Assembly (NCBI GenBank): GCA_963733955.1
Contig: CAVTEW010000001.1
Span: 328,005 to 392,004, forward strand
DNA: 64,000 nucleotides
Source of the DNA: an uncultured Acidobacteriota bacterium
GTDB lineage: Bacteria; Acidobacteriota; Thermoanaerobaculia; UBA5066; Gp7-AA6
Direction of reading: 5' to 3'
A model generated the notes under the pieces. The model searched no databases. It saw only the letters and a program-made list of their open reading frames with translations, and was not told where the DNA came from. How positions within the stretch are numbered: the stretch's first letter is position 1; every line of letters starts with the position of its first letter. Position numbers and translations under genes: made by a program. Below, in pieces: positions 1 through 57,748 of this stretch.

Positions 1-3000
1 CTTCCAGCCGCCGAGCGTCGCCAAGTCGTTCACGCCGACGGTCATTGGAGCGGGGGGGATCTCCAAGCTGGCGATCGCCCTGTCCAACGGAAACGCCTCC
101 GACGCCACGCTGAACGCCGACTTCGTCGACACGCTGCCGGGACCCGGCCTGGCGATCGCGAACCCGCCCAACCTGACCCTGAGCGCCAATTGCACCGCGG
201 GCAAAGTCGTCGCCGCGGCCGGCGGCACGACGGTGACCTATCAGAGCGGGGGAGTCCTGAAGGGCAACGGCGGCTGCACGATCCAGGTCGACGTCACGTC
301 CGGCACGGTTCGGGTCTACACGAACACGATCGCCGTGGGCGCGGTCCAGACGACGGTGGGAAACAACGTGGTCTCGGCTTCGGCCAACCTGCAGGTGCTG
401 GCGCTGCCGACGGTGGGGAAGGCGTTCTCTCCGATCTCGATTCCCCTCGGATCGAGCTCGACCCTGACCCTGACCCTGGGCAACACGAACGCGTCGGCCC
501 TGACCGTGAACGCGGATTTCGTCGACACGCTGCCGGCCAATCTCGTCCTGGGCACGCCGGCGACCGTCGGCGGCACCTGCGCGGCGGCCAACGTCGTGGC
601 CGCGGCCGGCGGGCCGTCGGTCACGTACAAGAGCGGCGCGACGATCCCGGCGGGAGGCTGCACGATCACCGTCCCGGTCACGTCGGGCCTGGGCGGCACC
701 TACGTGAACACGATTCTCGCGGGCGCGCTCAGCACGACGATCGGCGGCAACCCGGCCGGCGCCTCGGCCACGCTCGACATCCTCGAAGCGGATCTCTCCG
801 TCACGAAGACCGACGGCGTCGCCACGGTCGTTCCGGGAACGGCGACCACCTACACGATCGTCGTGTCCAACGCCGGACCGAGCCCGGTCGCCAACGCGCC
901 GGTCTCCGATCCGCTTCCGGCGGGCATCGGCTCGATGACCTGGACCTGCGCCGCCTCCGCGGGCTCCTCCTGCGGAGCCGCGAGCGGCAGCGGATCGATC
1001 GCCTCGACGGTCTCGCTCCTGCCCGGCGGATCGGCGACCTACGTCGTGCTCGCCAACGTCCTGCCGGCGGCGCTCGGAACGGTCGCGAACACGGCGACGG
1101 TCGCCGCGCCGGCGGGCGTTCCCGATCCCAATCCGGCCAACAACTCGGCCACCGACACGGACAATCTGACTCCGCAGGCGGATCTGCAGGTCGTCAAGGC
1201 CGGTCCGGCCGCCGTCGTGCCGGGTCAGAACATCTCTTACACGATCACGGCCACCAACGCCGGCCCGTCGACCGCGACCACCGTGAGCCTGACCGACCTC
1301 CTTGCGCCGGGCACGACCTTCGTCTCGCTCGCCACGCCGGGAGGCTGGGCCTGTTTGACGCCTCCGGTCGGCGGGACGGGCTCGGTGTCCTGCTCCACCG
1401 CGTCCTTCGCGCCGCCGAGCCCGGCCTCGTTCACTCTCGTGGTCAACCTGGCGTCGTCGGTCTCCGCGGGCACCTCCGTCTCCAACACCGCGACGATCAC
1501 GTCGGCGACGCCCGATCCGAACCCGGGCGACAATGCGAGCACCACGACGGGCACCGCCGCGCCGTCGGCCGACCTCGCGATCGTCAAGACCGGCCCGGCC
1601 ACCGCGGTACCGGGCGGACCCAACCTCGTCTTCACCACGGTCGTGACGAACAACGGTCCCTCCGACGCCCAGGGGGTCTCCGTCGCCGATCCGACTCCGG
1701 CCAACCTCGTCTTCGTCTCCAACGCCGGCGACTGCACCAGCGCGTTCCCGTGCGTCCTGGGCGCCCTGCCCGCCGGCGCCACGCGCAACATCACGACCAC
1801 GTTCCAGATCCCCTCGGCCTATCCCGCGGGAACGCCGATCGACAACACGGCCACGGTGTCCTCCACGACTCCGGATCCGGTCCCGGGCAACAACGCCTCG
1901 ACCGCGACGGTCCTCGTGCCGACCGGCGTGGCCGACGTCGCCGTCGCCAAGACCGTCGACAATCCCGCTCCCACCGTCGGCTCCAACGTCACGTTCACGG
2001 TGACGGCGTCGGATCTGGGCCCCAGCGACGCGACCGGCGTCGAGGTGACCGACGTGCTCCCGTCGGGACTGACGTTTGTCTCGGCGGCGCCTTCGCAGGG
2101 GTCCTTCGCGCCGGCGACGGGCGTGTGGACCGTGGGCGGGATCGCCGCGGGATCGTCGCAGACGATTCTGATCACGGCCACGGTCACCCAGCCGGGCGTC
2201 ATCGTCAACACCGCCACCAAGACGGCCGGGAACGAGACCGATCCCGACTCGTCCAACAACTCCGGCTCCGCGGTCGTCAGCGGGCCTCCGGCCGTCGCCG
2301 ACATCCAGGTCCAGAAGACCGTGGACGTGCCGGCGCCCGCGGTCGGCGCGAACGTGACGTTCACGATCACCGTCCACAACGCGGGACCGTCGCCGGCGAC
2401 CAACGTGCAGGTGACCGATCTTCTGCCGGCCGGGCTGACCTTCGTGTCCGCGCTTCCCTCCGTGGGCTCCTACGACTCGGTCACCGGCATCTGGTCGATC
2501 GGCGCGATGGCCAACGGGTCGACCGTCACTCTCGGAATCACCGCGAACGTGCCGGGGGCGGGAACGTTCGTCAACACGGCTCAGAAGACGGGCGAGACCG
2601 AGCTCGATCCCAACACCGGCAACGATCAGGCCAGCGCGGTCGTCGTGGCCGGCGGCGGAGGCGGCGCGCTCGCCGACCTCTCTATCCAGAAGACCGATTC
2701 GCCCGATCCCGTCTTCGCCGGACAGACCCTGACCTACACGCTGCTCGTGACCAACCACGGCCCCGACGGCGCCACCGCGGTCACGGTGACCGATCCGCTG
2801 CCCGCCGCGGCGACGCTCGCCTCCGCCTCCGCGAGCCAGGGCGGCTGCGGTGGCACGACGACGGTGGTCTGCACGCTCGGCGGCCTGGCCGCGGGCAACA
2901 GCGCGACGGTGTCCCTGGTGGTGACCGTGTCGGCGGCCGGAGCGCCCGCGATCGTCAACACGGCGACCGTCGCCGCGACGGAGACCGATCCCAATCCGAC

Positions 3001-4588
3001 CGACAACACGGCGACCGCGACGACCGGGGTGACGCCCGTCGCGGACGTGGCCGTCTCCAAGACCGTCTCCAATCCGGCGCCGCTGGTCTCCCAGACGTTC
3101 ACGTTCACCGTGACCGTCTCCAACAACGGCCCCTCCACGGCGACCGGCGTGGCGGTGACCGACGTCCTTCCGGCCAACCTCACGTTTGTCGGCGCGGCGC
3201 CGACACTGGGAGCCTACGCGCCCGGCACGGGAATCTGGACCGTGGGCACGCTGGCCAACGGGCAGATCGAAACCCTGGTGATCACGGTCCTGGCCGCGGC
3301 GCCCGGCGCTTTCACCAACACCGCGGTCAAGACGGGCGAGGTCGAGCTCGATCCCAATCCCGCCAACGACTCCGCGAGCGTCGGAGGCGGCGTCGCCGTC
3401 GTGGCCGACCTGACGATCGTCAAGACGCACGCGCCGGCGACCTTCCTGCGCGGCGCGTCGGGAACCTTCACCTTGACCGTCTCCAACGTGGGGACCGGGC
3501 CGACGACCTCTCCGGTGACCGTCACCGACGGCCTGCCCGCCGGGTTGACGGCGACGGCGGCGTCGGGCACGGGCTGGGGCTGCGTCGTGGGCGCGGCGGT
3601 GGTCTGCGCGCGGTCCGACGTTCTGGCGGCGGGCGCCTCCTGGCCGCCGATCTCCGTGACCGCTTCGGTCGCGCAGTCGGCCGCGGCGAACGTGTCCAAC
3701 ACCGCGACGGTGTCGGGAGGCGGGGACATCGACCCCGCCAACGACTCGTCTACCGACGTCGTTCCGGTCGGCTCGCAGGCCGACCTCGCGCTGGTAAAGA
3801 CCGGTCCGGCCAACGCCATCCCCGGAACCAACATCGTGTACACGCTCGTCGTGACCAACAACGGCCCGTCCGACGCGCTGGGCGTCGTGGTCAGCGACCC
3901 GACCCCGCCCAACCTGACGTTCGTGTCCAACGGCGGCGCCTGCGCGACGGCCTTCCCCTGCAGCCTCGGCACGATCGCCTCGGGCGGCTCGGCCACCATC
4001 ACCGCGACGTTCGCCATCCCGGCCGGGTACACCACGCCGAGCCCGATCGTGAACAGCGCCTCGGTGACCGGCGCCACTCCCGATCCGACGCCGGCCAACA
4101 ACGCGTCGAGCGCGTCGACCGCGGTCTCCGCGGACCTGGAAGCGGTGAAGACGTCGAGCACGCCGACGATCCTGCTGGGGATTCCCTTCAGCTATCAGAT
4201 TGTCGTGACCAACCACGGGCCGTCCGACGCGACCGGCGTGACGCTCACCGACCCGCTGCCGGCCCAGGTCACGTTCCAGTCGGCGACGGCGACGCAGGGC
4301 GCGTGCTCGGGAACGACCACCGTGACCTGCGCGCTGGGAACGCTCGCCAACGGAGCGTCCGCCACCGTGGTGATCACCGTGGTGCCTCCGACGACCGCCG
4401 CTCCCGGCCCGGTCGCCAACACGGCCATGGTCGCGGCCAACGAGTCCGATCCGGACCCGACCAACAACTCCAGCACCGCCACCGCCGTGCTCGGAAGCCC
4501 GGCCATCCCGACGCTTTCGCAGTGGGCGCTGGCCGGCCTCGCGCTCGCGCTGGCCGCGGCGGGCGTCTGGGCTTCGAGAAGGCCGTAG
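1..4588 (+). CDS. Giant repetitive surface protein made of DUF11-type repeats with a C-terminal IPTL-CTERM sorting signal. 5'-partial: the reading frame is open from window position 2.
   Basis: Frame-2 translation runs from nt 2 and is built of ~120-aa repeats (ADLxxxKT...VTNxGPSxA...DPxPxNN). It ends in IPTLSQWALAGLALALAAAGVWASRRP, i.e. IPTL motif plus hydrophobic helix plus basic tail. Stop at 4586-4588. Confidence 0.8.
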   Translation, partial: FQPPSVAKSFTPTVIGAGGISKLAIALSNGNASDATLNADFVDTLPGPGLAIANPPNLTLSANCTAGKVVAAAGGTTVTYQSGGVLKGNGGCTIQVDVTSGTVRVYTNTIAVGAVQTTVGNNVVSASANLQVLALPTVGKAFSPISIPLGSSSTLTLTLGNTNASALTVNADFVDTLPANLVLGTPATVGGTCAAANVVAAAGGPSVTYKSGATIPAGGCTITVPVTSGLGGTYVNTILAGALSTTIGGNPAGASATLDILEADLSVTKTDGVATVVPGTATTYTIVVSNAGPSPVANAPVSDPLPAGIGSMTWTCAASAGSSCGAASGSGSIASTVSLLPGGSATYVVLANVLPAALGTVANTATVAAPAGVPDPNPANNSATDTDNLTPQADLQVVKAGPAAVVPGQNISYTITATNAGPSTATTVSLTDLLAPGTTFVSLATPGGWACLTPPVGGTGSVSCSTASFAPPSPASFTLVVNLASSVSAGTSVSNTATITSATPDPNPGDNASTTTGTAAPSADLAIVKTGPATAVPGGPNLVFTTVVTNNGPSDAQGVSVADPTPANLVFVSNAGDCTSAFPCVLGALPAGATRNITTTFQIPSAYPAGTPIDNTATVSSTTPDPVPGNNASTATVLVPTGVADVAVAKTVDNPAPTVGSNVTFTVTASDLGPSDATGVEVTDVLPSGLTFVSAAPSQGSFAPATGVWTVGGIAAGSSQTILITATVTQPGVIVNTATKTAGNETDPDSSNNSGSAVVSGPPAVADIQVQKTVDVPAPAVGANVTFTITVHNAGPSPATNVQVTDLLPAGLTFVSALPSVGSYDSVTGIWSIGAMANGSTVTLGITANVPGAGTFVNTAQKTGETELDPNTGNDQASAVVVAGGGGGALADLSIQKTDSPDPVFAGQTLTYTLLVTNHGPDGATAVTVTDPLPAAATLASASASQGGCGGTTTVVCTLGGLAAGNSATVSLVVTVSAAGAPAIVNTATVAATETDPNPTDNTATATTGVTPVADVAVSKTVSNPAPLVSQTFTFTVTVSNNGPSTATGVAVTDVLPANLTFVGAAPTLGAYAPGTGIWTVGTLANGQIETLVITVLAAAPGAFTNTAVKTGEVELDPNPANDSASVGGGVAVVADLTIVKTHAPATFLRGASGTFTLTVSNVGTGPTTSPVTVTDGLPAGLTATAASGTGWGCVVGAAVVCARSDVLAAGASWPPISVTASVAQSAAANVSNTATVSGGGDIDPANDSSTDVVPVGSQADLALVKTGPANAIPGTNIVYTLVVTNNGPSDALGVVVSDPTPPNLTFVSNGGACATAFPCSLGTIASGGSATITATFAIPAGYTTPSPIVNSASVTGATPDPTPANNASSASTAVSADLEAVKTSSTPTILLGIPFSYQIVVTNHGPSDATGVTLTDPLPAQVTFQSATATQGACSGTTTVTCALGTLANGASATVVITVVPPTTAAPGPVANTAMVAANESDPDPTNNSSTATAVLGSPAIPTLSQWALAGLALALAAAGVWASRRP

Positions 4589-5777: not shown

Positions 5778-6194
5778 TCAACGCAGCTTGTGCAGCAGGA
5801 CGTGCTGGGTTTTCTGCTGCTGGTAGCCGCGTCGTTCGTAGAATCGATGCGCGGCGTCCCGTTCCACCCGGGAGCGAACGCGCACGGAGCGAAACCCCCG
5901 CCGCAGGCACCAGGCCTCGGCGGCCACCACGAGCTCGCCGCCGAGCCCCTGTCCGCGATGGTCCTTGCTCACCACCAGGCCCTTGATCTCGGCCACGCCG
6001 TCGTGGGTCAGGGAGAAGTCGCCCCCGATGTGAATCCACCCGGCGACCGCGCCGTCCTCGAGCTCCGCCACGAGAAGGGCCTCGTCTCCCGACCGCCGCA
6101 CATGGCTGAAGCGGGGCTCGATCTCGGGGAGAGTCGCGGGATAGCCCAACTGCGTGGCGAGGTCGGCCACCGCCGGCAGGTCGTTGGGCGTCAT
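5778..6194 (-). CDS. GNAT family N-acetyltransferase.
   Basis: MTPNDLPAVADL...GLVVSKDHRGQGLGGELVVAAEAWCLRRGF...RFYERRGY shows the acetyl-CoA-binding motif (Q/RxxGxG/A). The ORF in the track extends further upstream with non-protein-like sequence, so the internal ATG at 6194 was chosen. Confidence 0.7.
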   Translation of the reverse strand: MTPNDLPAVADLATQLGYPATLPEIEPRFSHVRRSGDEALLVAELEDGAVAGWIHIGGDFSLTHDGVAEIKGLVVSKDHRGQGLGGELVVAAEAWCLRRGFRSVRVRSRVERDAAHRFYERRGYQQQKTQHVLLHKLR

Positions 6195-16268: not shown

Positions 16269-17423
16269 TCAGCGCGTCAGCAGGATCGAGACCGAATGGC
16301 TCTCGGAGTTCGCGGTGACCGCGTCGGCGCGTCCGTCGCCGTCGAAGTCCGCGAGGACCACGCGCCACGCTTCAGCGCCGCCGTGCGGGACCGTCGCCAC
16401 CCGCGCGGCCGACAAGCCGTCCGGCCCGCCGAAGGCGACGGTCAGATCGCTGGTGCCCCCATTGGCAGTAACCGCGTCGTCGAATCCGTCGCCGTCGACG
16501 TCTCCCACGGCGATGTCACCGGAGGCCCGGCCGGTCGGGATTTTGCCGCCCAGCCGAAAGTGCCCGCGGCCGTCTCCCAGGAGGAACGTCAACCCGTCGC
16601 CGGAGGGGTCGTCGATGTGTCCCGAGTAGTTGGCGACGGCGAGATCGATCTTCCCGTCGCGGTTGAAGTCGCCCGCGGCGACGGCGAACGGGCACGGCCC
16701 CGCCGGCGTCGGAGGATCGGCCGCGCCGGTGAAGTGCCCGCGTCCGTCGCCGGCGAGGACGGTGATGGCCCGCTCGACCATATTCGGGGCCACGATGTCG
16801 CAACGGCCGTCTCCGGTCACGTCGCGCAGCAGGAGATTGCGGTAGGGCTTGCGTCCCGCCTCGACCGTCATTCCGGGGACGGCGAACCGTCCTTGTCCCA
16901 GCCCGCGAAGGACGGTGAACCGATTTTCGGCCCAACTGTCGATGACCAGGTCCCGGTGGCCGTCGCCGTCGATGTCGCATGCGCCGATCGAGTGCGGATG
17001 CGGGTTGCTGTGGACCGCCAGCGGCGAGCCTGGCGCGGGACGCAAGCCGCCGCGCCCGTCGCCCAGCAGAATCGTGACGCGGGGCGTCCCGTGGTTGGCG
17101 ATGGCCAGGTCCAGCTTGCCGTCTCGATCGAGGTCGGCGACGGCGATTGCGGTCGGGGAGGGGCCGGCCGGGAAGGACCCGCCGCGCGTGAATCCGCCGC
17201 GCCCGTCGCCTCGGAAGACGGTCACGTCGTCGGTTCCGCCGCTGGCCACGAGCAGGTCGAGCTTGCCGTCGCCGTCGAAGTCGCCGGCCGCGACCGCATT
17301 GGGCCGGCGGCCGCCATCCATCGCGACGAGGCGGGGTGGGCGAAAGGGCGACGGGCGCCGGGCCGGCGCCTCCGCGAGACCGACGAGGATGGGGATCGCG
17401 AACAGCGCGGCCCGGGCTCTCAT
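16269..17423 (-). CDS. Secreted FG-GAP/VCBS repeat protein (integrin-alpha-like beta-propeller).
   Basis: Signal peptide MRARAALFAIPILVGLAEA. Seven repeats of the DxDGDGxxDL(V/A)(V/A)AN calcium-binding motif (e.g. GDFDGDGKLDLLVAS, ADLDRDGKLDLAIAN). Confidence 0.75.
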   Translation of the reverse strand: MRARAALFAIPILVGLAEAPARRPSPFRPPRLVAMDGGRRPNAVAAGDFDGDGKLDLLVASGGTDDVTVFRGDGRGGFTRGGSFPAGPSPTAIAVADLDRDGKLDLAIANHGTPRVTILLGDGRGGLRPAPGSPLAVHSNPHPHSIGACDIDGDGHRDLVIDSWAENRFTVLRGLGQGRFAVPGMTVEAGRKPYRNLLLRDVTGDGRCDIVAPNMVERAITVLAGDGRGHFTGAADPPTPAGPCPFAVAAGDFNRDGKIDLAVANYSGHIDDPSGDGLTFLLGDGRGHFRLGGKIPTGRASGDIAVGDVDGDGFDDAVTANGGTSDLTVAFGGPDGLSAARVATVPHGGAEAWRVVLADFDGDGRADAVTANSESHSVSILLTR

Positions 17424-45782: not shown

Positions 45783-47261
45783 CTACCTGCATCGCAGCGC
45801 CGCGGTCGGCGCGATGCGGGAGGCTTTGCGGGCGAAGAAATAGGCGGCCCGCATCGTCGCGAGGACCATCGCCGGCACGACGATGAGATAGACCGTCAGG
45901 TCGACGCTGCCGTTGAACAGCATCGAGTTCATGAGGCGTTCGAGCGCGAACCCCATCACGAGCCCGATCACCGTCCCCGTCGCCACGAGGACGAGACCCT
46001 TGCCCATCATGAGGCGGACGACGTCGAAGGGCCTCGCGCCGATCGCCATGCGGATGCCGATCTCCCGCGTCCGGCGGCTGACGTTGTATGCCACCAGGCC
46101 GTACAGCCCAGCGATCGCGAGCACGAGGCCGATCGCTCCGAGCATCGCGACCACCGTCACCGCCAGGCCCGGTCCCTCCACCGCGGCGTAGCGGTAGAGA
46201 TCCTGATAAAACCTCGCTTCGACCAGAGGCATGTTGGGGTCGAGGGTCCGGACGGCGTTCTGGACGGGCTCGAGCGACTGGAGCGGGTCGCCGGTCGTAC
46301 GCACGAGCAGGACCAGCCGGGCGACGGGATGCTGTAAGAGAGGCAGATACACGAAGTCGACCGGACGGTCCGGTAGGGCGCTGTACTTGATCGTCTTCGC
46401 GACGCCGACGATCTCGACCGCCTGTGTCGTCACGGAGGCCGCGGCAGACCCGGCCAGCCGGAACCGCTTCCCGACGGCGTCCGCGTTGGGCCAGTCCCGG
46501 CCCGGCACCTGGTCTTCTTGGTCCAAGAAGCCGCGGCCGATCGCCGGCTCGACGCCGAGAACCCGGAAGTAGTTGCCGGAGACGAGCACGCCGGCTCGGA
46601 CGGCCGCCGTGGCCCGGGCTCGGCGCTGTAGCCGACGGCGGCGGGGAACGTGCTGGCCACGACGCCGTCGTAGCTCCTGGTCTGGCCGCGGATGTCGAGG
46701 TACTCGCGGTACGAGAAGTTCGCGAAGCGATTGTCGCGGGACGTGCTCACCAGGGTCATGACGCCGTGGGGTCGGCGACCGGATACGGCCGGAAGATCAG
46801 AGCATCGAGCACGGCATCGCCGTCATCCCGATCCCCAGCGCGATCGTGACCACCACGACCACGGTCAGCCCGGGCGCCCGGCGCAGGCTCCGAACCGCGT
46901 AGCGCACGTCGTCCCCGAAGTCCGTCAGCCAGTGAATGCCGCGCGCGTCCCGGATCTCCTCTTTCCGCTGGTCCAGCCCGCGCATCGCGCGCAGGGCGCG
47001 CCGGCGCGCCTCGTCCGGCGAGAGCCCGGCGGCGACCCCCTCGTCGATCTTGTGCTCCAGGTGGAACAGGAGCTCACCAGTGCTCGACGCGCAGGACGAC
47101 GACTCGATCCTCGGTGCCTTCAGGCCTCGGAAAGCGCGACGACGGACGAGATGGCCGACGACAGGCGCTGCCAGTTCGCCGTCTCCGTGTCGAGCTGCCT
47201 CCGGCCCAGGCGGGTGAGCGAGTAGAACTTCGCCCGCCGGTTGTTCTCCGTCTGCTTCCAC
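45783..47261 (-). pseudogene. FtsX/MacB-type ABC transporter permease (ADOP-related, PadR-associated), disrupted by two compensating frameshifts.
   Basis: N-terminal cytoplasmic part plus TM1 (..RRALRAMRGLDQRKEEIRDARGIHWLTDFGDDVRYAVRSLRRAPGLTVVVVVTIALGIGMTA) runs in one frame to a stop at 46797. The conserved NRFANFSYREYLDIRGQTRSYDGV segment is in another frame (46759-~46600). The VSGNYFRVLGVEPAIGRGF...FtsX domain...ALRCR end is back in the first frame (46589-45783). Confidence 0.5.
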
Positions 47262-47455
47262 TCGGCCTTGATCCAGCCTTCCTGCTCCAGCTTGTGCAGG
47301 GCAGGGTAGAGAGACCCCTCGCTGACCTGCAGCACGTCGGAAGAGAGGGATCGCAGACGGAGGCTGATGGCCCAGCCGTGCAGGGGCTGGAGCGCGAGGA
47401 TCTTGAGAAGCAGCAGATCCAGAGTGCCCTGGACGAGATCGGCTGGTTTGCTCAT
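47120..47455 (-). CDS. PadR family transcriptional regulator.
   Basis: MSKPADLVQGTLDLLLLKILALQPLHGWAISLRLRSLSSDVLQVSEGSLYPALHKLEQEGWIKAEW is the PadR winged-HTH signature. It is upstream of the FtsX permease, the ADOP-type arrangement. Confidence 0.8.
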   Translation of the reverse strand: MSKPADLVQGTLDLLLLKILALQPLHGWAISLRLRSLSSDVLQVSEGSLYPALHKLEQEGWIKAEWKQTENNRRAKFYSLTRLGRRQLDTETANWQRLSSAISSVVALSEA

Positions 47456-47464
47456 GCGCGTTGA

Positions 47465-47519
47465 CTCATATATCGGTCTCCGAGGGGAGTCTACGGCCGT
47501 GTCCTCTCGGTAAGCAAGG
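47465..47519 (-). promoter_or_regulatory. Conserved ~55-nt hairpin element, copy A, immediately upstream of the padR start and overlapping the 3' end of aar.
   Basis: Plus-strand sequence ctcatatatcggtctCCGAGGGGAgtctacggccgtgTCCTCTCGGtaagcaagg. It has a 9-bp inverted repeat with one G-U pair, and is ~85% identical to 49525-49582. Confidence 0.55.
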
Positions 47520-48701
47520 AGAAGTCCGGCCGCCCGTCGCTGCGGACCCGAGTCGGGCGATGCGATCGCCGCACAGTCCCTGATCGTTGAAGAACGGCGC
47601 GAGCGCGAATCCGTGTTTTCCGGCGAGAGCCCAGATCTCGTCGACCTGGCCGGGCGAAATGTCGCCCCGGCCGCGGGAGTAGGACTCGCACCGTCCTTCG
47701 AGCGCCAGAAGCATCCCCTCGAGAAGGCAGCCCTGAACGATGTTGGGCGCCGGATGAGGCGCCAGAACGGGGAGCAGGTCGGGGACGAGCTGCAGTCCCC
47801 CGAGGACCTGGCCCATTCCACCGAAGAAAACAATCGGCCGCGGGCCGGGCGACTCGTCCCCATCCCCATCCGCGAGAACATTCTTGGGATAGCCCGCGTC
47901 GCAGACGATCGCGTCCGCACGGACGGATCGCAGCGAAAAGCGGGGCGCGGACAGACTCGCCGCCGCGATGATGATGTCCGCCTCGGGCAGACGCTCCTCC
48001 GGATCGGTCGAGATCGAGACGGCCGTGTCGTCCGAAGCGAAGGCGGACGTCAGCGCTCGCTGGAGTTTCCGCAGGCGGTGCGGATTGCGGGCGCAGAGGA
48101 GGAGGCGCCCGGCCCGGCCCAGGAGATAGCGCGCGCAGCCGGAGCCGACGTCCCCGGTCGCGCCGAGAATGAGGATGGACTGCGAGCCGAGGAACCGCCC
48201 GGCGAGCGCGGACGCCCGCTCGATCGCCTTCACGATGTAGGCGACGGTCAGGGTGTTTCCCGTCGTGAACGCCACGTCCTCGTGGGAGGGAAGGAGGTCG
48301 ACCTTCCCCTCCAGAACGATCGAGCTGAAGCCGCCGAGGGCGGCGACGGCCGCTCCCTCCCTCCGGGCGCAGTCGGCCGCCTCGCGGATCCGCTGGACCT
48401 TCTCCCGCACGGATCCCTGGCCGTCGTCGAGTCCGTCGGGCGCGAGGAACGCGTCCACGTAGACGCCGTGAGCACGCGATCCGTTGGTCGAAAACACCGT
48501 GACGCGGCAGACGGTGCGTGGAGGCAGGTACGGCACGATCTCGCGGATGTCGCGCGCCGAAATGGGCCGGCCGCTCTCGCCCCGCAGCGTCCGGACCACG
48601 GCGGCGGTCTTTTCCCAGCTGTCGAGGTGACCGATGAGCGCGAACCGCGCGGCGGCCGGGCGGCGATCCCCCCGTGGGGCGGTCGCGCCGGCGGGCTTCA
48701 C
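47466..48701 (-). CDS. aar: Long-chain acyl-[ACP] reductase (aldehyde-forming), cyanobacterial AAR type.
   Basis: FALIGHLDSWEKTAAVVRTL (compare MFGLIGHLTSLEQA), GGFSSIVLEG, FTTGNTLTVAYIV, LGATGDVGSGCARYL (NAD(P)-binding) and DAGYPKN all align with cyanobacterial AAR. GTG start overlaps the ado stop (GTGA). Confidence 0.7.
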   Translation of the reverse strand: MKPAGATAPRGDRRPAAARFALIGHLDSWEKTAAVVRTLRGESGRPISARDIREIVPYLPPRTVCRVTVFSTNGSRAHGVYVDAFLAPDGLDDGQGSVREKVQRIREAADCARREGAAVAALGGFSSIVLEGKVDLLPSHEDVAFTTGNTLTVAYIVKAIERASALAGRFLGSQSILILGATGDVGSGCARYLLGRAGRLLLCARNPHRLRKLQRALTSAFASDDTAVSISTDPEERLPEADIIIAAASLSAPRFSLRSVRADAIVCDAGYPKNVLADGDGDESPGPRPIVFFGGMGQVLGGLQLVPDLLPVLAPHPAPNIVQGCLLEGMLLALEGRCESYSRGRGDISPGQVDEIWALAGKHGFALAPFFNDQGLCGDRIARLGSAATGGRTSPCLPRGHGRRLPSETDI

Positions 48702-49459
48702 ACCGGCAAGCGCGTGATCCACTGCAGCGTCTCCTCTCCGGGGAGGCCGACTCGGTCGAGAGACTTCAGATAGAGGTTGATCGCCCCGCCGCGGAGCCGG
48801 ACGATGTCCAGATTCACTTGGGGCAGAGACGGCTTGATGCAGGTCTTTCCACAGAGGAGGCAATCCCCGCGGATGTCCTCCCGCGCCACCATCTCCGCCA
48901 GGACGGACATCACGTTCTCGTGAACGGCCGCGACCTTCTCCCGGAGTCCGACGGGATCGCGCCGGTAGACCTCGGAGAGCAGCTCGATGGCATGCTCGAG
49001 GTGTTCCGTCTCCTCGGCGGCGACCGCCTTGTACGCCCGCCCGAGCCTGCCGGGCGCGACGCGCGCCACAGCCGAGTACATGGAGACGGCGAAGGACTCC
49101 AGCATCAGCTCCTGGATGATCAGGCACGACGTGAAGTCGCCGCGCCCGGCGCTCTGCACGAAGGCGGATCGGATGCGCTTCCAATAGGGCGCGTTCACGT
49201 TCAGCGTCACGCAGAGGCCCATCTCCTCGCCCAGGCGCTGGAACGAGCGGGCGTGCGCCTTCTCCCTCGCCGCGTGCTCGAGGGCTTCGATCTTGTCGTC
49301 CGCGCTCTCGTAGAGATCGACGAGGCTCGCGAAGTTCATCATCCCGACGAGCTCGCCGGTGGCGGACTGAGAAAGAATGCTTTCCCAAACACGGTGCGCC
49401 TCCGCGCCCGCCGGCAACGGATCGCCGGGTATCCCTGACGTCCCTTTCATCGCTTCCAT
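48698..49459 (-). CDS. ado: Aldehyde-deformylating oxygenase (ferritin-like di-iron fatty aldehyde decarbonylase), ADO type.
   Basis: Di-iron ligand motifs are at the spacing expected for ADO: EALEHAAREKAH (ExxH) and AAEETEHLEHA (ExxH). TSCLIIQELMLESFAVSMY is analogous to ADO TPTCLLIQALLIEAFAISAY. Length ~250 aa. GGAGGAGGAG RBS upstream of the ATG. Confidence 0.7.
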   Translation of the reverse strand: MEAMKGTSGIPGDPLPAGAEAHRVWESILSQSATGELVGMMNFASLVDLYESADDKIEALEHAAREKAHARSFQRLGEEMGLCVTLNVNAPYWKRIRSAFVQSAGRGDFTSCLIIQELMLESFAVSMYSAVARVAPGRLGRAYKAVAAEETEHLEHAIELLSEVYRRDPVGLREKVAAVHENVMSVLAEMVAREDIRGDCLLCGKTCIKPSLPQVNLDIVRLRGGAINLYLKSLDRVGLPGEETLQWITRLPV

Positions 49460-49524
49460 CGCTTCCACGTCTCCTCCTCCCGCCCGTCGAAGTCGGGACA
49501 ATCGGGCTCGGGCCCTCCCGGAGC

Positions 49525-49582
49525 CTCACTTTTATCGGTTTCCGAGAGGAGTGTGCGGCGGCGTCCTCTCGGTAAGCAAGGG
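49525..49582 (-). promoter_or_regulatory. Conserved ~55-nt hairpin element, copy B, in the leader region upstream of ado.
   Basis: Plus-strand sequence ctcacttttatcggttTCCGAGAGGAgtgtgcggcggcgTCCTCTCGGtaagcaagg. It has a 9-bp perfect inverted repeat and shares the flanking tatcggt and taagcaagg with copy A. Confidence 0.55.
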
Positions 49583-49687
49583 GTGCATAAAGACGAGTAC
49601 GGAACCGGGAGCCGGAGGTTTCGGGAAAAGCGAGCGGGACCGGGCCGGCCTCAGCCTGGGTCGGATCCCATCCTCCCGGGGGGCGGA

Positions 49688-50701
49688 CTACAGGATTCGC
49701 TCGGAGACTCGGCTTGGCCCCGCTTCCGGGGCTTTCTCGCGCTGGCCGGCCTTGTCCCTTCGATACGCGGCCGGCGGCAAGCGGTACTCGCGCTTGAAGG
49801 CCCGATTAAAGGCCGCTTCGGACTCGTAGCCAACGTCCGACGCGATCTGTGCCACGCCCTGGCTCGTGGCGGCGAGCGCGCGGGCTCCCAACTGAAGCCG
49901 CCATCGCGTCAGATAAGCCATCGGAGGCTGACCCAGGAAGTGCCGGAAGCGCTCCGAGAGCACTGTCCGCGACAGGCCGGCCTCCCGCGCCAGTTCGGCA
50001 ACCGTCCACGGATGCGCGTGCCGATGGTGGAGCAGCGTCAGCGCTCTGCCGACCGCCGGATCGCGGGCGCCCGCGAGCCACCCGGTTTGCCCTTCCGGAA
50101 GCTGCCGGACGTACTTGCGAAGCGTCTCGGCAAAGACGGCCTCCGAAAGCCTCGCCAGCATCGCGTCCGCTCCGGCCTCGCGGTTCGCGGCTTGAGTGAC
50201 GGAGAACCTCAGGGAATTTTCCAGCCATTGTCCCGACGGATCGTCGCGGATATTGACCTTGATGAGGGGCGGCAGGCCACCGAGGAACGCCTGGCTCAAT
50301 TGGGGATCGCAGACCAGGAAACCGCAGATGAACCGGCATGACGCGCCGCCGCCGCCAAAGCGCAGCAGCCCCAGGCCGCGTTTGAGAATGCCCGGAAGGG
50401 CGGCGCCGGCATCGATCGGGGTCACGCAACCGCCGCTGCCCAGCACGTGTCCATGGCCGTGCGGAAACGTGACGAGGTCGCCGGCGGAAAGGTCGACGCG
50501 TTCCCCTTCCTCCAGCTCCACGTAAGCCCGGCCTTCGCTGAGAAGGTGGTAGATGATCACGTGACCGGCCTCTCGCGCGAGCATGGGCGCGATCGCGCGC
50601 GACTGCGGCGACAGGAGGCACCACGGCTCGGAGAACTCCACGTTGAAGAAGATGGCCGAGTCGAGCTTGATGGCGCGAAGAACTTCCGGAAGAGCGTCCA
50701 T
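49688..50701 (-). CDS. AraC family transcriptional regulator (N-terminal cupin sensor plus C-terminal HTH_18).
   Basis: Cupin His motif VTFPHGHGHVLG. C-terminal WTVAELAREAGLSRTVLSERFRHFLGQPPMAYLTRWRLQLGARAL...VGYESEAAFNRAFKREY is the AraC HTH. Confidence 0.8.
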   Translation of the reverse strand: MDALPEVLRAIKLDSAIFFNVEFSEPWCLLSPQSRAIAPMLAREAGHVIIYHLLSEGRAYVELEEGERVDLSAGDLVTFPHGHGHVLGSGGCVTPIDAGAALPGILKRGLGLLRFGGGGASCRFICGFLVCDPQLSQAFLGGLPPLIKVNIRDDPSGQWLENSLRFSVTQAANREAGADAMLARLSEAVFAETLRKYVRQLPEGQTGWLAGARDPAVGRALTLLHHRHAHPWTVAELAREAGLSRTVLSERFRHFLGQPPMAYLTRWRLQLGARALAATSQGVAQIASDVGYESEAAFNRAFKREYRLPPAAYRRDKAGQREKAPEAGPSRVSERIL

Positions 50702-56668: not shown

Positions 56669-57748
56669 TCAGGACCGGGGAGGCACGACGGTTGATCGAA
56701 CCGGCCTCGGCACACGCCGGATCGGAGCCCTGGCCGGGATGGGAAAATCGAGGCGACCGATCTTCCCTGCCGCAGTCGGGCTGAACGAGAGGTTGCCGGC
56801 AGTCTCGGTGAACCAGACGGCGCCCTCCGGCCCGATCGCGATGCCGTATGGCTGGCTGCCCGGCGTCGGAATGGGAAACTCGGTGATCTCGCCCGAAGGG
56901 GTGATCCGTCCGATCTTGTTGCCTTGCATCTCGGTGAACCACAGTGCGCCCGATTCTGCGGTGATGGCGCCGGGCATGCTGTCGGGCGTGGGAATGCGGA
57001 ACTCGGTAATCACGCCCGCGACTGTGATCCGACCGATTCGATTCGCGGCTGTCTCCGTGAACCACAGGTGGCCGTCCGGGCCGACGGTGATCCTCAGAGG
57101 CTCGCTCTGGGGCGGAACGGGAAACTCGGTCAGGTGTCCGTCGGTCGTGATGCGTCCGATGCGGTCGGCATTGCTCTCCGTGAACCAGAGCGCGCCATCC
57201 GGTCCGGCCGCGATCCCCCATGGATGGATCTGATAAGACACTCCGGTCAGATCAAAGAGCTCGAAGCGTCCGGCAGCAGTCATCCGACCGACCTGACCGC
57301 CATCCCACTCCGTGAACCAGAGGTTTCCATCGGAACCGACCGCGAGTTCCAGCGGCCCGTCCTCCTCGAAGAACGCCCCGGCAGGCCCGAACTCCGTGAT
57401 CTGTCCGTCCAACGTGATCCGTCCGATCTTGTCCGCGAAGCCTTCGGTGAACCAGATAGCCCCATCCGGCCCGAGCGTGATCCCTCCCGGCTCGCACTTT
57501 GACGTCGGGACGGGATACTCCGAGAGAGTCCCGGACGTCGTAATTCGCCCGATCCGGTTACCTCTCAGCTCCGTAAACCACATCGCACCGTCCGGACCGG
57601 CTGTCAGGTTCCAGGGAACGCTGTGCGGATCAGGGACGACATATTCAGTGATCGTCTGGGCGAGAGTGTTTCCCGGGAAGCAGAAGACGAGGGCCAGAGT
57701 CAGCGTTACGAGCAGGCTGGTTGGCAGGAGAGACGCTTCTTTGCTCAC
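56669..57748 (-). CDS. Secreted virginiamycin-B-lyase (Vgb)-like beta-propeller protein.
   Basis: Signal peptide followed by 7 repeats of the ...GP(D)GA(L/I)WFTE..N(R/K)IGRIT..G...E(F/Y)..P hallmark of the Vgb/streptogramin lyase family. Confidence 0.7.
   Translation of the reverse strand: MSKEASLLPTSLLVTLTLALVFCFPGNTLAQTITEYVVPDPHSVPWNLTAGPDGAMWFTELRGNRIGRITTSGTLSEYPVPTSKCEPGGITLGPDGAIWFTEGFADKIGRITLDGQITEFGPAGAFFEEDGPLELAVGSDGNLWFTEWDGGQVGRMTAAGRFELFDLTGVSYQIHPWGIAAGPDGALWFTESNADRIGRITTDGHLTEFPVPPQSEPLRITVGPDGHLWFTETAANRIGRITVAGVITEFRIPTPDSMPGAITAESGALWFTEMQGNKIGRITPSGEITEFPIPTPGSQPYGIAIGPEGAVWFTETAGNLSFSPTAAGKIGRLDFPIPARAPIRRVPRPVRSTVVPPRS

Follow-up and report, generated by a model that had tools for sequence, protein, structure and literature searches.

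A repeated element of about 55 nt occurs twice in a 64-kb stretch of contig CAVTEW010000001.1 (hereafter the window) from an uncultured Acidobacteriota bacterium, once before a padR gene (copy A) and once before a gene pair encoding an ADO-like and an AAR-like protein (copy B). Each copy is probably a DNA-level promoter with an overlapping palindromic operator of the type that governs a padR-ADOP operon. The adjacent PadR is its likely binder, and copy B would put the ADO-like/AAR-like pair under the same repressor.

The element and its place before padR

Copies of the element were sought in one genome per species with the pattern CCTTGCTTACC N27-37 GGARACCGAT, in which the outer flanks are fixed and the stem is free. 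Only exact-pattern matches were accepted, and copies per genome are counted on that basis. The scan returned 64 stretches, about 58 of them real and nearly all from Acidobacteriota. Hosts of the real copies are Thermoanaerobaculia, Vicinamibacteria, Bryobacterales, Acidobacteriaceae, Acidiferrales and unclassified Acidobacteriota. The matches at L018, L036, L052, L060 and L063 are due to chance, since they have other lengths or come from other phyla and have unrelated interiors. One further match, L048 (VBMI01000156.1), is binned as "Methanobacteriota archaeon". Its element and padR start are the same as those of L017 (QHXX01000034.1, a metagenome-assembled genome (MAG) of Acidobacteria gp22) over the roughly 120 nt compared, and the contig is probably mis-binned.

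The element has a constant length of 48 nt. About 50 of the 58 copies abut the ATG of a padR gene directly and in one orientation, the next bases being ATGAGCAAACCnnnCGACCTCGTCCAGGGCACCCTCGAC, and the coding start that follows in these copies, ATGAGCAAACC..., reads MSKP.DLVQGTLD. There is one exact match per genome, rarely two, contigs of 4.4 Mb included. The PadRs encoded behind the element share 84-94% amino acid identity with the window PadR (tblastn); the same loci hold two further padR paralogs, at 51-60% identity, and these lack the element. Downstream of padR there is usually an ADOP gene of about 900 aa that starts some 6 nt on, and sometimes a gene for a DUF4386 membrane protein. Because so many copies stand at the ATG of a single PadR ortholog group that is followed by ADOP, the element is, on sequence grounds, the 5' control region of one highly conserved padR-ADOP operon. 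A search for further copies, which the sequence-only reading of the window had proposed, thus places most of them before padR and the others before ado-aar, DUF4386, secreted-protein and GntR-ABC genes.

Column counts over 58 distinct copies give the layout CCCC-TTGCTT (-35-like), an 18-nt spacer, TAnACT (-10-like), GGAAACCGAT and ATG, with the ATG 16 nt beyond TAnACT. Conservation sets in abruptly at CC-CCTTGCTTACC, and nothing is conserved further upstream. The -10-like columns (35-40) hold T (55), A (55), any base, A (48), C (55) and T (57) of 58, that is, TAGACT, TACACT or TATACT. Spanning the -10 is an imperfect palindrome, CCGAGrGGAG(N11)CTCCyCTmGG, found 6-37 nt before the ATG in canonical copies; the left arm falls within the spacer, and the right arm covers the -10 to +1 region. 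Many copies have the longer form CCGAGGGGAGTCT-N5-AGACTCCCCTCGG, up to 13+5+13 bp. The -35/-10 reading is supported by a padR paralog in L055, which has ccccTTGACA-17-TACCCT-8-ATG at the same place. An imperfect dyad over the -10 of a regulator's own gene is the classical repressor-operator layout. Two other readings of the element were rejected: for a sigma-54 promoter with TTGCTT as the -12 box, neither window copy has a GG at the right -24 spacing (by eye), and for a mini open reading frame (ORF) beginning at the ATGAG after the element, the frames differ between the copies.

Both window copies are in gene-sense orientation on the minus strand. On the sense strand copy A reads CCTTGCTTACCGAGAGGAC-ACGGCCGTAGAC-TCCCCTCGGAGACCGAT and copy B reads CCTTGCTTACCGAGAGGAC-GCCGCCGCACAC-TCCTCTCGGAAACCGAT. 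The 18-mer CCTTGCTTACCGAGAGGA occurs exactly twice in the window, at 47502-47519 and 49564-49581 on the minus strand (0 expected, 100 shuffles), and a profile built from relatives matches the window at copies A and B only (E 1e-14 and 5e-15). The sequence-only reading had described two direct-repeat copies of about 55 nt at these places, each with a 9-bp inverted repeat, and both features are confirmed; the inverted repeat is CCGAGAGGA ... TCCyCTCGG. The parts of the two copies are as follows.

Copy A, 47465..47527, minus strand: resident padR promoter-operator (putative); nhmmer 50 bits; same place relative to padR in about 50 genomes
47517-47512, minus strand: copy A, -35-like TTGCTT
47510-47502, minus strand: copy A, left arm CCGAGAGGA
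47493-47488, minus strand: copy A, -10-like TAGACT
47488-47480, minus strand: copy A, right arm TCCCCTCGG
47481-47472, minus strand: copy A, leader segment GGAGACCGAT
Copy B, 49525..49589, minus strand: extra padR-type promoter-operator (putative) upstream of the ADO-like gene; nhmmer 51 bits; homologous copies before ado in L075 and L076
49579-49574, minus strand: copy B, -35-like TTGCTT
49572-49564, minus strand: copy B, left arm CCGAGAGGA
49555-49550, minus strand: copy B, -10-like CACACT
49550-49542, minus strand: copy B, right arm TCCTCTCGG
49543-49534, minus strand: copy B, leader segment GGAAACCGAT

The gene directly downstream of copy A, as in about 50 other genomes, encodes a PadR-family winged helix-turn-helix (wHTH) protein. 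The window PadR scores 148 bits against TIGR03433 (cut-off 101.8), so that it passes as a member of the TIGR03433 padR_acidobact / TIGR03434 ADOP pairs of NCBIfam, and the gene downstream of it is an ADOP. These pairs are described there as proteins only, and the element marks one very conserved ortholog group among them, not the two sampled paralogs. No description of a cis-element for TIGR03433/TIGR03434 pairs was found in the searchable literature, and none is in Rfam; nothing specific turned up in literature on ADOP, a padR_acidobact operator, or ADO/AAR in Acidobacteria.

Proposed regulation and candidate binding proteins

Transcription would start about 7 nt past TAnACT, near the GG of GGAAACCGAT, which would leave a leader of about 10 nt before the ATG. 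Given that one half-site falls within the spacer and its partner spans -10 to +1, RNA polymerase would be blocked once a dimer is bound. The PadR encoded just downstream is the most likely binder, and it may be an autorepressor that is freed by some ligand. The ADO-like/AAR-like pair and padR-ADOP would then both respond to the same repressor, through copies B and A, respectively. There is no terminator-like site between aar and padR, and transcripts from copy B probably run on into padR.

PadR proteins of the single-domain type control their own expression as dimers that bind inverted repeats in the promoters of their genes (PMC5050560, PMC6624303, PMC5728393), and the site of cdPadR1 is TACT(N11-12)AGTA (PMC5050560). 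The arrangement described here is like that of the autoregulated subfamily-2 PadR promoters (Clostridium difficile cdPadR1, Lactococcus lactis LmrR, Bacillus cereus bcPadR1 and Listeria LftR/LstR) in that a small PadR gene (about 110 aa) lies directly downstream. The half-site spacing, GGAG(N11)CTCC, is similar to that of cdPadR1, and in both cases the site is inside the regulator's own promoter, here a putative one. Both systems also have a membrane transporter downstream, and in both the site recurs at further promoters (PMC5050560, PMC6624303). The differences lie in the sites themselves. The half-sites of the element are G/C-rich and unrelated to ATGT/ACAT or TACT/AGTA, its spacer is GC-rich rather than AT-rich, 

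Several observations weigh against a PadR-bound promoter-operator. A strict sigma-70 consensus scan calls neither window copy (TTGCTT matches 3/6, TAGACT 4/6 and CACACT 3/6), and the promoter is for this reason described as putative throughout; the -10 of copy B, CACACT, is degraded. At its full extent the palindrome exceeds a typical single-dimer PadR site and is unlike the ATGT-N8-ACAT motif. The outer 11 and 10 nt were fixed by the scan pattern, so conservation there is partly due to ascertainment; the four copies detected by an independent route, namely both L075 copies, L076 and L069:2613, have just one base different each in these pattern-fixed columns. Lastly, an AraC-family gene stands before the extra copy in three loci, and another regulator may take part.

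This last point leads to the alternative that fares best, namely that the promoter is as proposed and that its palindrome or -35 flank is bound by some other regulator, either the AraC/cupin protein encoded upstream of copy B or a global factor. In the window, L012 and L069, AraC/Cupin_6 homologs directly adjoin the extra copy on its upstream side (those in L012 and L069 have 41-46% identity), and AraC-type activators commonly act beside the -35. Most canonical copies, however, have no AraC neighbour; one is present only in L012, L019 and L069, and that of L019 is not adjacent. The padR gene is the sole constant partner of the element, and a perfect-dyad site suits a symmetric wHTH dimer more than the direct repeats of AraC. 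We therefore regard another binding protein as unlikely.

Extra copies and the origin of copy B

All genes of the region are on the minus strand, in the order AraC/Cupin_6 regulator, ADO-like, AAR-like, padR and a degraded ADOP permease. Apart from the two copies, the features are as follows.

49688..50701, minus strand: AraC-family regulator (Cupin_6 and HTH_18) directly upstream of copy B; distant homologs stand likewise before the extra copy in L012 and L069
49469..49524, minus strand: leader from copy B to the ADO-like start; likely decayed padR codons ~3-11 (CCCGACTTCGACGGGC, cf. GCCGACCTCGTCCAGGGC; by-eye alignment), then Shine-Dalgarno GGAGGAGGAG
48698..49468, minus strand: ADO-like ferritin-type di-iron protein (Pfam PF11266, E 7e-13); likely start GTG at 49468, kept as GTGGAAGC in relatives
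47466..48722, minus strand: AAR-like reductase (ORF list, TIGR04058 score); stop TGA at 47466-47468
47456..47471, minus strand: 16-nt lineage-specific insertion ATATGAGTCAACGCGC between copy A and the padR ATG; in canonical copies the ATG comes directly after ACCGAT
47120..47455, minus strand: padR, 111 aa, single-domain PadR, TIGR03433 padR_acidobact (Pfam PF03551, E 8e-22); presumed repressor of both copies
45783..47116, minus strand: remnant of the ADOP duplicated permease, without residues ~227-627 of ~900, the rest in three frames

Extra copies of the element are found before several other genes. L042 has one before a DUF4386 gene, which in turn stands before padR. In both L012 and L069 the extra copy precedes the gene for a secreted protein, giving the layout copy, gene, copy, padR; L054 has the same protein behind a copy alone. 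L001 and L002 have one extra copy 100-150 nt upstream of a GntR-ABC...DinB-ado-aar cluster, with a recognisable padR 5' remnant. Partial tandem duplications, consisting of a full element, about 8 padR codons, a second -10/right half-site, GGAAACCGAT and the real ATG, occur in L011 (4941-5044), L053 (860-708, minus strand) and L066 (1434-1538). The extra copies before other genes suggest that a single promoter-operator has been reused to build a small PadR regulon. Together with the palindromy and the position at an orthologous padR, they argue for the shared operator and PadR-linked co-regulation put forward in the sequence-only reading.

L012, 1391-575, minus strand: secreted protein, ~170-180 aa, conserved, no Pfam hit
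L069, 2613-3504: same protein
L054, 5284-5920: same protein

A second conserved operator-promoter, cTTGC...GTGTTGTAGTnnACTACATCACC, has a GntR-type dyad and precedes the GntR-ABC operon; in L008 and L090 it precedes ado-aar itself. The ADO/AAR-like pair thus appears to be wired to different repressors, through PadR-type or GntR-type sites, in different lineages.

L008, ~5900-6000: GntR-type operator-promoter site
L090, ~2170-2260: GntR-type operator-promoter site
L001, 1340-1385: GntR-type operator-promoter site
L002, 1395-1440: GntR-type operator-promoter site
L004, 1265-1300: GntR-type operator-promoter site

The spread of the extra copies has a bearing on whether the palindrome is more than an operator. 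One possibility, which we consider improbable, is a phylum-wide "portable" promoter-operator whose palindrome is a recombination hot spot, with accessory genes (ADO/AAR-like, DUF4386, secreted protein, GntR-ABC) captured repeatedly before padR or behind duplicated copies; if true, this would be a simple promoter-capture platform that builds a PadR stress regulon in Acidobacteriota. That the palindrome itself doubles as the site of recombination, either att-like or through hairpin-induced template switching, and so repeatedly captures genes between promoter and padR, is very improbable. At least 3-4 independent recruitments lie just past ACCGAT-ATGAG (window/L075/L076, L012/L069, L042 and L001/L002), the partial tandem duplications are present, and small insertions fall at the same point: 16 nt lie between the element and the padR ATG at copy A, 28 nt in L075 and 14 nt in L023 (offsets of +15, +27 and +10, respectively, against 0 elsewhere). 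Against this, no recombinase gene adjoins the element in the window, and a highly conserved sequence is open to ordinary illegitimate or homologous recombination, which is explanation enough. Integron-type core sites (attC/attI, RYYYAAC / GTTRRRY) are absent from the element, and there is no IntI among the neighbour genes, although no window-wide integrase search was made.

The arrangements in relatives bear on how the window came to have two promoter-operators. Close ADO-like relatives (81-92% identity, Acidobacteriota MAGs) mostly have a DinB-ado-aar-peptidase context with no repeat nearby. About 17 other ado-aar loci are without the element, which shows that it belongs to padR and not to ado-aar; an intrinsic tie of the repeat to ado-aar is not upheld. 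In L014 and L064 DinB-ado-aar runs directly into the element, padR and ADOP, and ado is not preceded by a copy. The aar/padR junction is therefore older than copy B, and in copy A we simply see the promoter that resides at padR. Copy B is also present in L076 and in L075, the latter with the complete series copy, ado, aar, copy, padR, ADOP; its arms and their spacing are kept in three relatives, and the neighbouring sequence has diverged.

Behind copy B in the window, L075 and L076 there follow ATGAG, 13-30 nt, a stretch like padR codons ~3-11, a Shine-Dalgarno and the ado start. In L076 the stretch AGCCAGACGACCTCG agrees with padR AACCAGCCGACCTCG at 13/15 positions (by-eye alignment). The presence of padR-like 5' codons points to a padR gene as the source of copy B. 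On the strength of these short similarities, copy B looks like a padR promoter that has been joined, along with a decayed 5' end of padR, to the ado leader. A likeness between the ado leaders of motif-bearing and motif-less relatives was rejected as a sign of shared ancestry, as only the Shine-Dalgarno and the start region align.

The sequence-only reading had also offered the repeats as the footprint of a repeat-mediated insertion of the ado-aar cassette, and had listed a generic repetitive extragenic palindromic (REP) repeat as a refuter; a mobile repeat of the REP or miniature inverted-repeat transposable element (MITE) type is considered here alongside insertion of a mobile cassette. A 2-kb two-gene unit bracketed by direct repeats, the varied ado-aar contexts among relatives, and the recurrence of the copy, gene, copy, padR order around another gene (L012 and L069) all fit a duplication left by such an insertion. 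L014 and L064 do not, as they have ado-aar beside the element and padR with no upstream copy, and the padR-like codons after copy B derive that copy from a padR gene. Terminal inverted repeats and target duplications are absent. Copies A and B are identical at 42/48 positions (87.5%) of the conserved core, so the earlier figure of about 85% was about right; it is not a special one, however, since unrelated family members have a mean identity of 83.4% and 33% of pairs are at least as alike as A and B. Each copy has closer matches in other genomes than in the other. With such ordinary identity and closer matches elsewhere, nothing suggests that the element was duplicated recently in situ or as a target-site duplication. 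A search for a precise empty site, in which AraC, one copy and padR would follow one another, found none; in L012 and L069, where the AraC homologs have only 41-46% identity, the copies bracket another gene. Insertion of a cassette is thus most doubtful as the origin of the repeats, and a REP- or MITE-type element is excluded by the few exact-pattern matches per genome and by the fixed place and single orientation at the padR ATG.

Hairpin folding, gene assignments and biological context

The remaining alternative is a structured RNA leader, in which the hairpin acts in cis on the translation or stability of the ado and padR mRNAs. It implies a transcription start upstream of CCCCTTGCTT, so that the transcript would include the entire hairpin. 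Copy B and some canonical copies do fold stably (z-scores against shuffles of -2.95 for copy B and -4.5 for the strongest canonical copy), and a read-through transcript from copy B would include all of copy A. Copy A (+0.29) and L014 (-0.6), however, fold no better than shuffled sequence. A G-U wobble had been thought to maintain pairing in copy A. The mRNA-sense strand has an A.C mismatch at this place, and the G-U exists on the plus (antisense) strand only. Stem changes are uncompensated across the family, with G.A at position 20/46 in 24/58 copies and A.C at position 23/43 in 15/58, and stem covariation is not significant (Fisher p 0.15 and 0.09; 58 copies). The 3' part of the loop (TAnACT) is conserved to the same degree as the stem, no conserved upstream sequence could act as a promoter for such a leader, and Rfam holds nothing relevant at the gathering threshold or at E<=10. 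With no compensation, no conserved stability and no Rfam match, the element is not a structured cis-regulatory RNA; the leader proposed in the sequence-only reading is highly unlikely.

The -35-like TTGCTTA (47512-47517) is complementary, with one G-U, to TGAGCAA in the padR start region (47448-47455). This pairing appears in folds of canonical copies, and the extra copies keep ATGAG and not CAA. The complementarity may be a coincidence or an outer dyad.

Neighbour genes around the repeats belong to the AraC, methyltransferase, OsmC and PadR families (Pfam). Copy A had been seen to overlap the aar stop; it does, and the relation goes further than an overlap, as the AAR-like ORF reads through copy A and takes its last ~18 codons from the repeat. 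The ADO-like protein scores 50.1 bits against TIGR04059 (equivalog cut-off 222.65) and the AAR-like protein 129.7 bits against TIGR04058 (equivalog cut-off 449.7). Both are below, and the labels "ado" and "aar" are over-calls; ADO-like and AAR-like are more apt. The pair shares with cyanobacterial ado-aar the same two folds, the same gene order and overlapping or adjacent genes. It differs in these far lower scores, in its Acidobacteriota/Gemmatimonadota hosts, in a Cys-rich C-terminal extension on the ADO-like protein (CLLCGKTCIKPSLP) and in the predicted PadR-type or GntR-type operator promoters. The pair belongs to a family of >340 proteins in Acidobacteriota/Gemmatimonadota MAGs and is only distantly related to the cyanobacterial alkane enzymes; the AAR-like protein shows a likeness to the N-terminal part of PigE as well. 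The ADOP remnant, which lacks about 400 internal residues, is either a pseudogene or the result of assembly frameshifts atop a real deletion. Elsewhere in the window there are diverged coding-repeat arrays (~366-nt units at 800-4500, ~150-nt units at 16300-17300 and ~125-nt units at 56800-57620). Large repetitive surface or beta-propeller proteins typically have such arrays, which bear no relation to the padR element.

The case shows that a palindromic operator is easily mistaken for an RNA hairpin or an insertion scar in genome scanning. Acidobacteria genomes are characterised by pairs of padR_acidobact and ADOP genes, to which a sharply delimited cis-element found across the phylum gives direct access. 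It would be the first cis-regulatory handle on the enigmatic PadR-ADOP system, and it ties ADO/AAR-like enzymes to that system. The genes behind the extra copies (ADO/AAR-like lipid-modifying enzymes, DUF4386 and the secreted protein) hint at the stimulus, which is probably a membrane-active or lipophilic stress.

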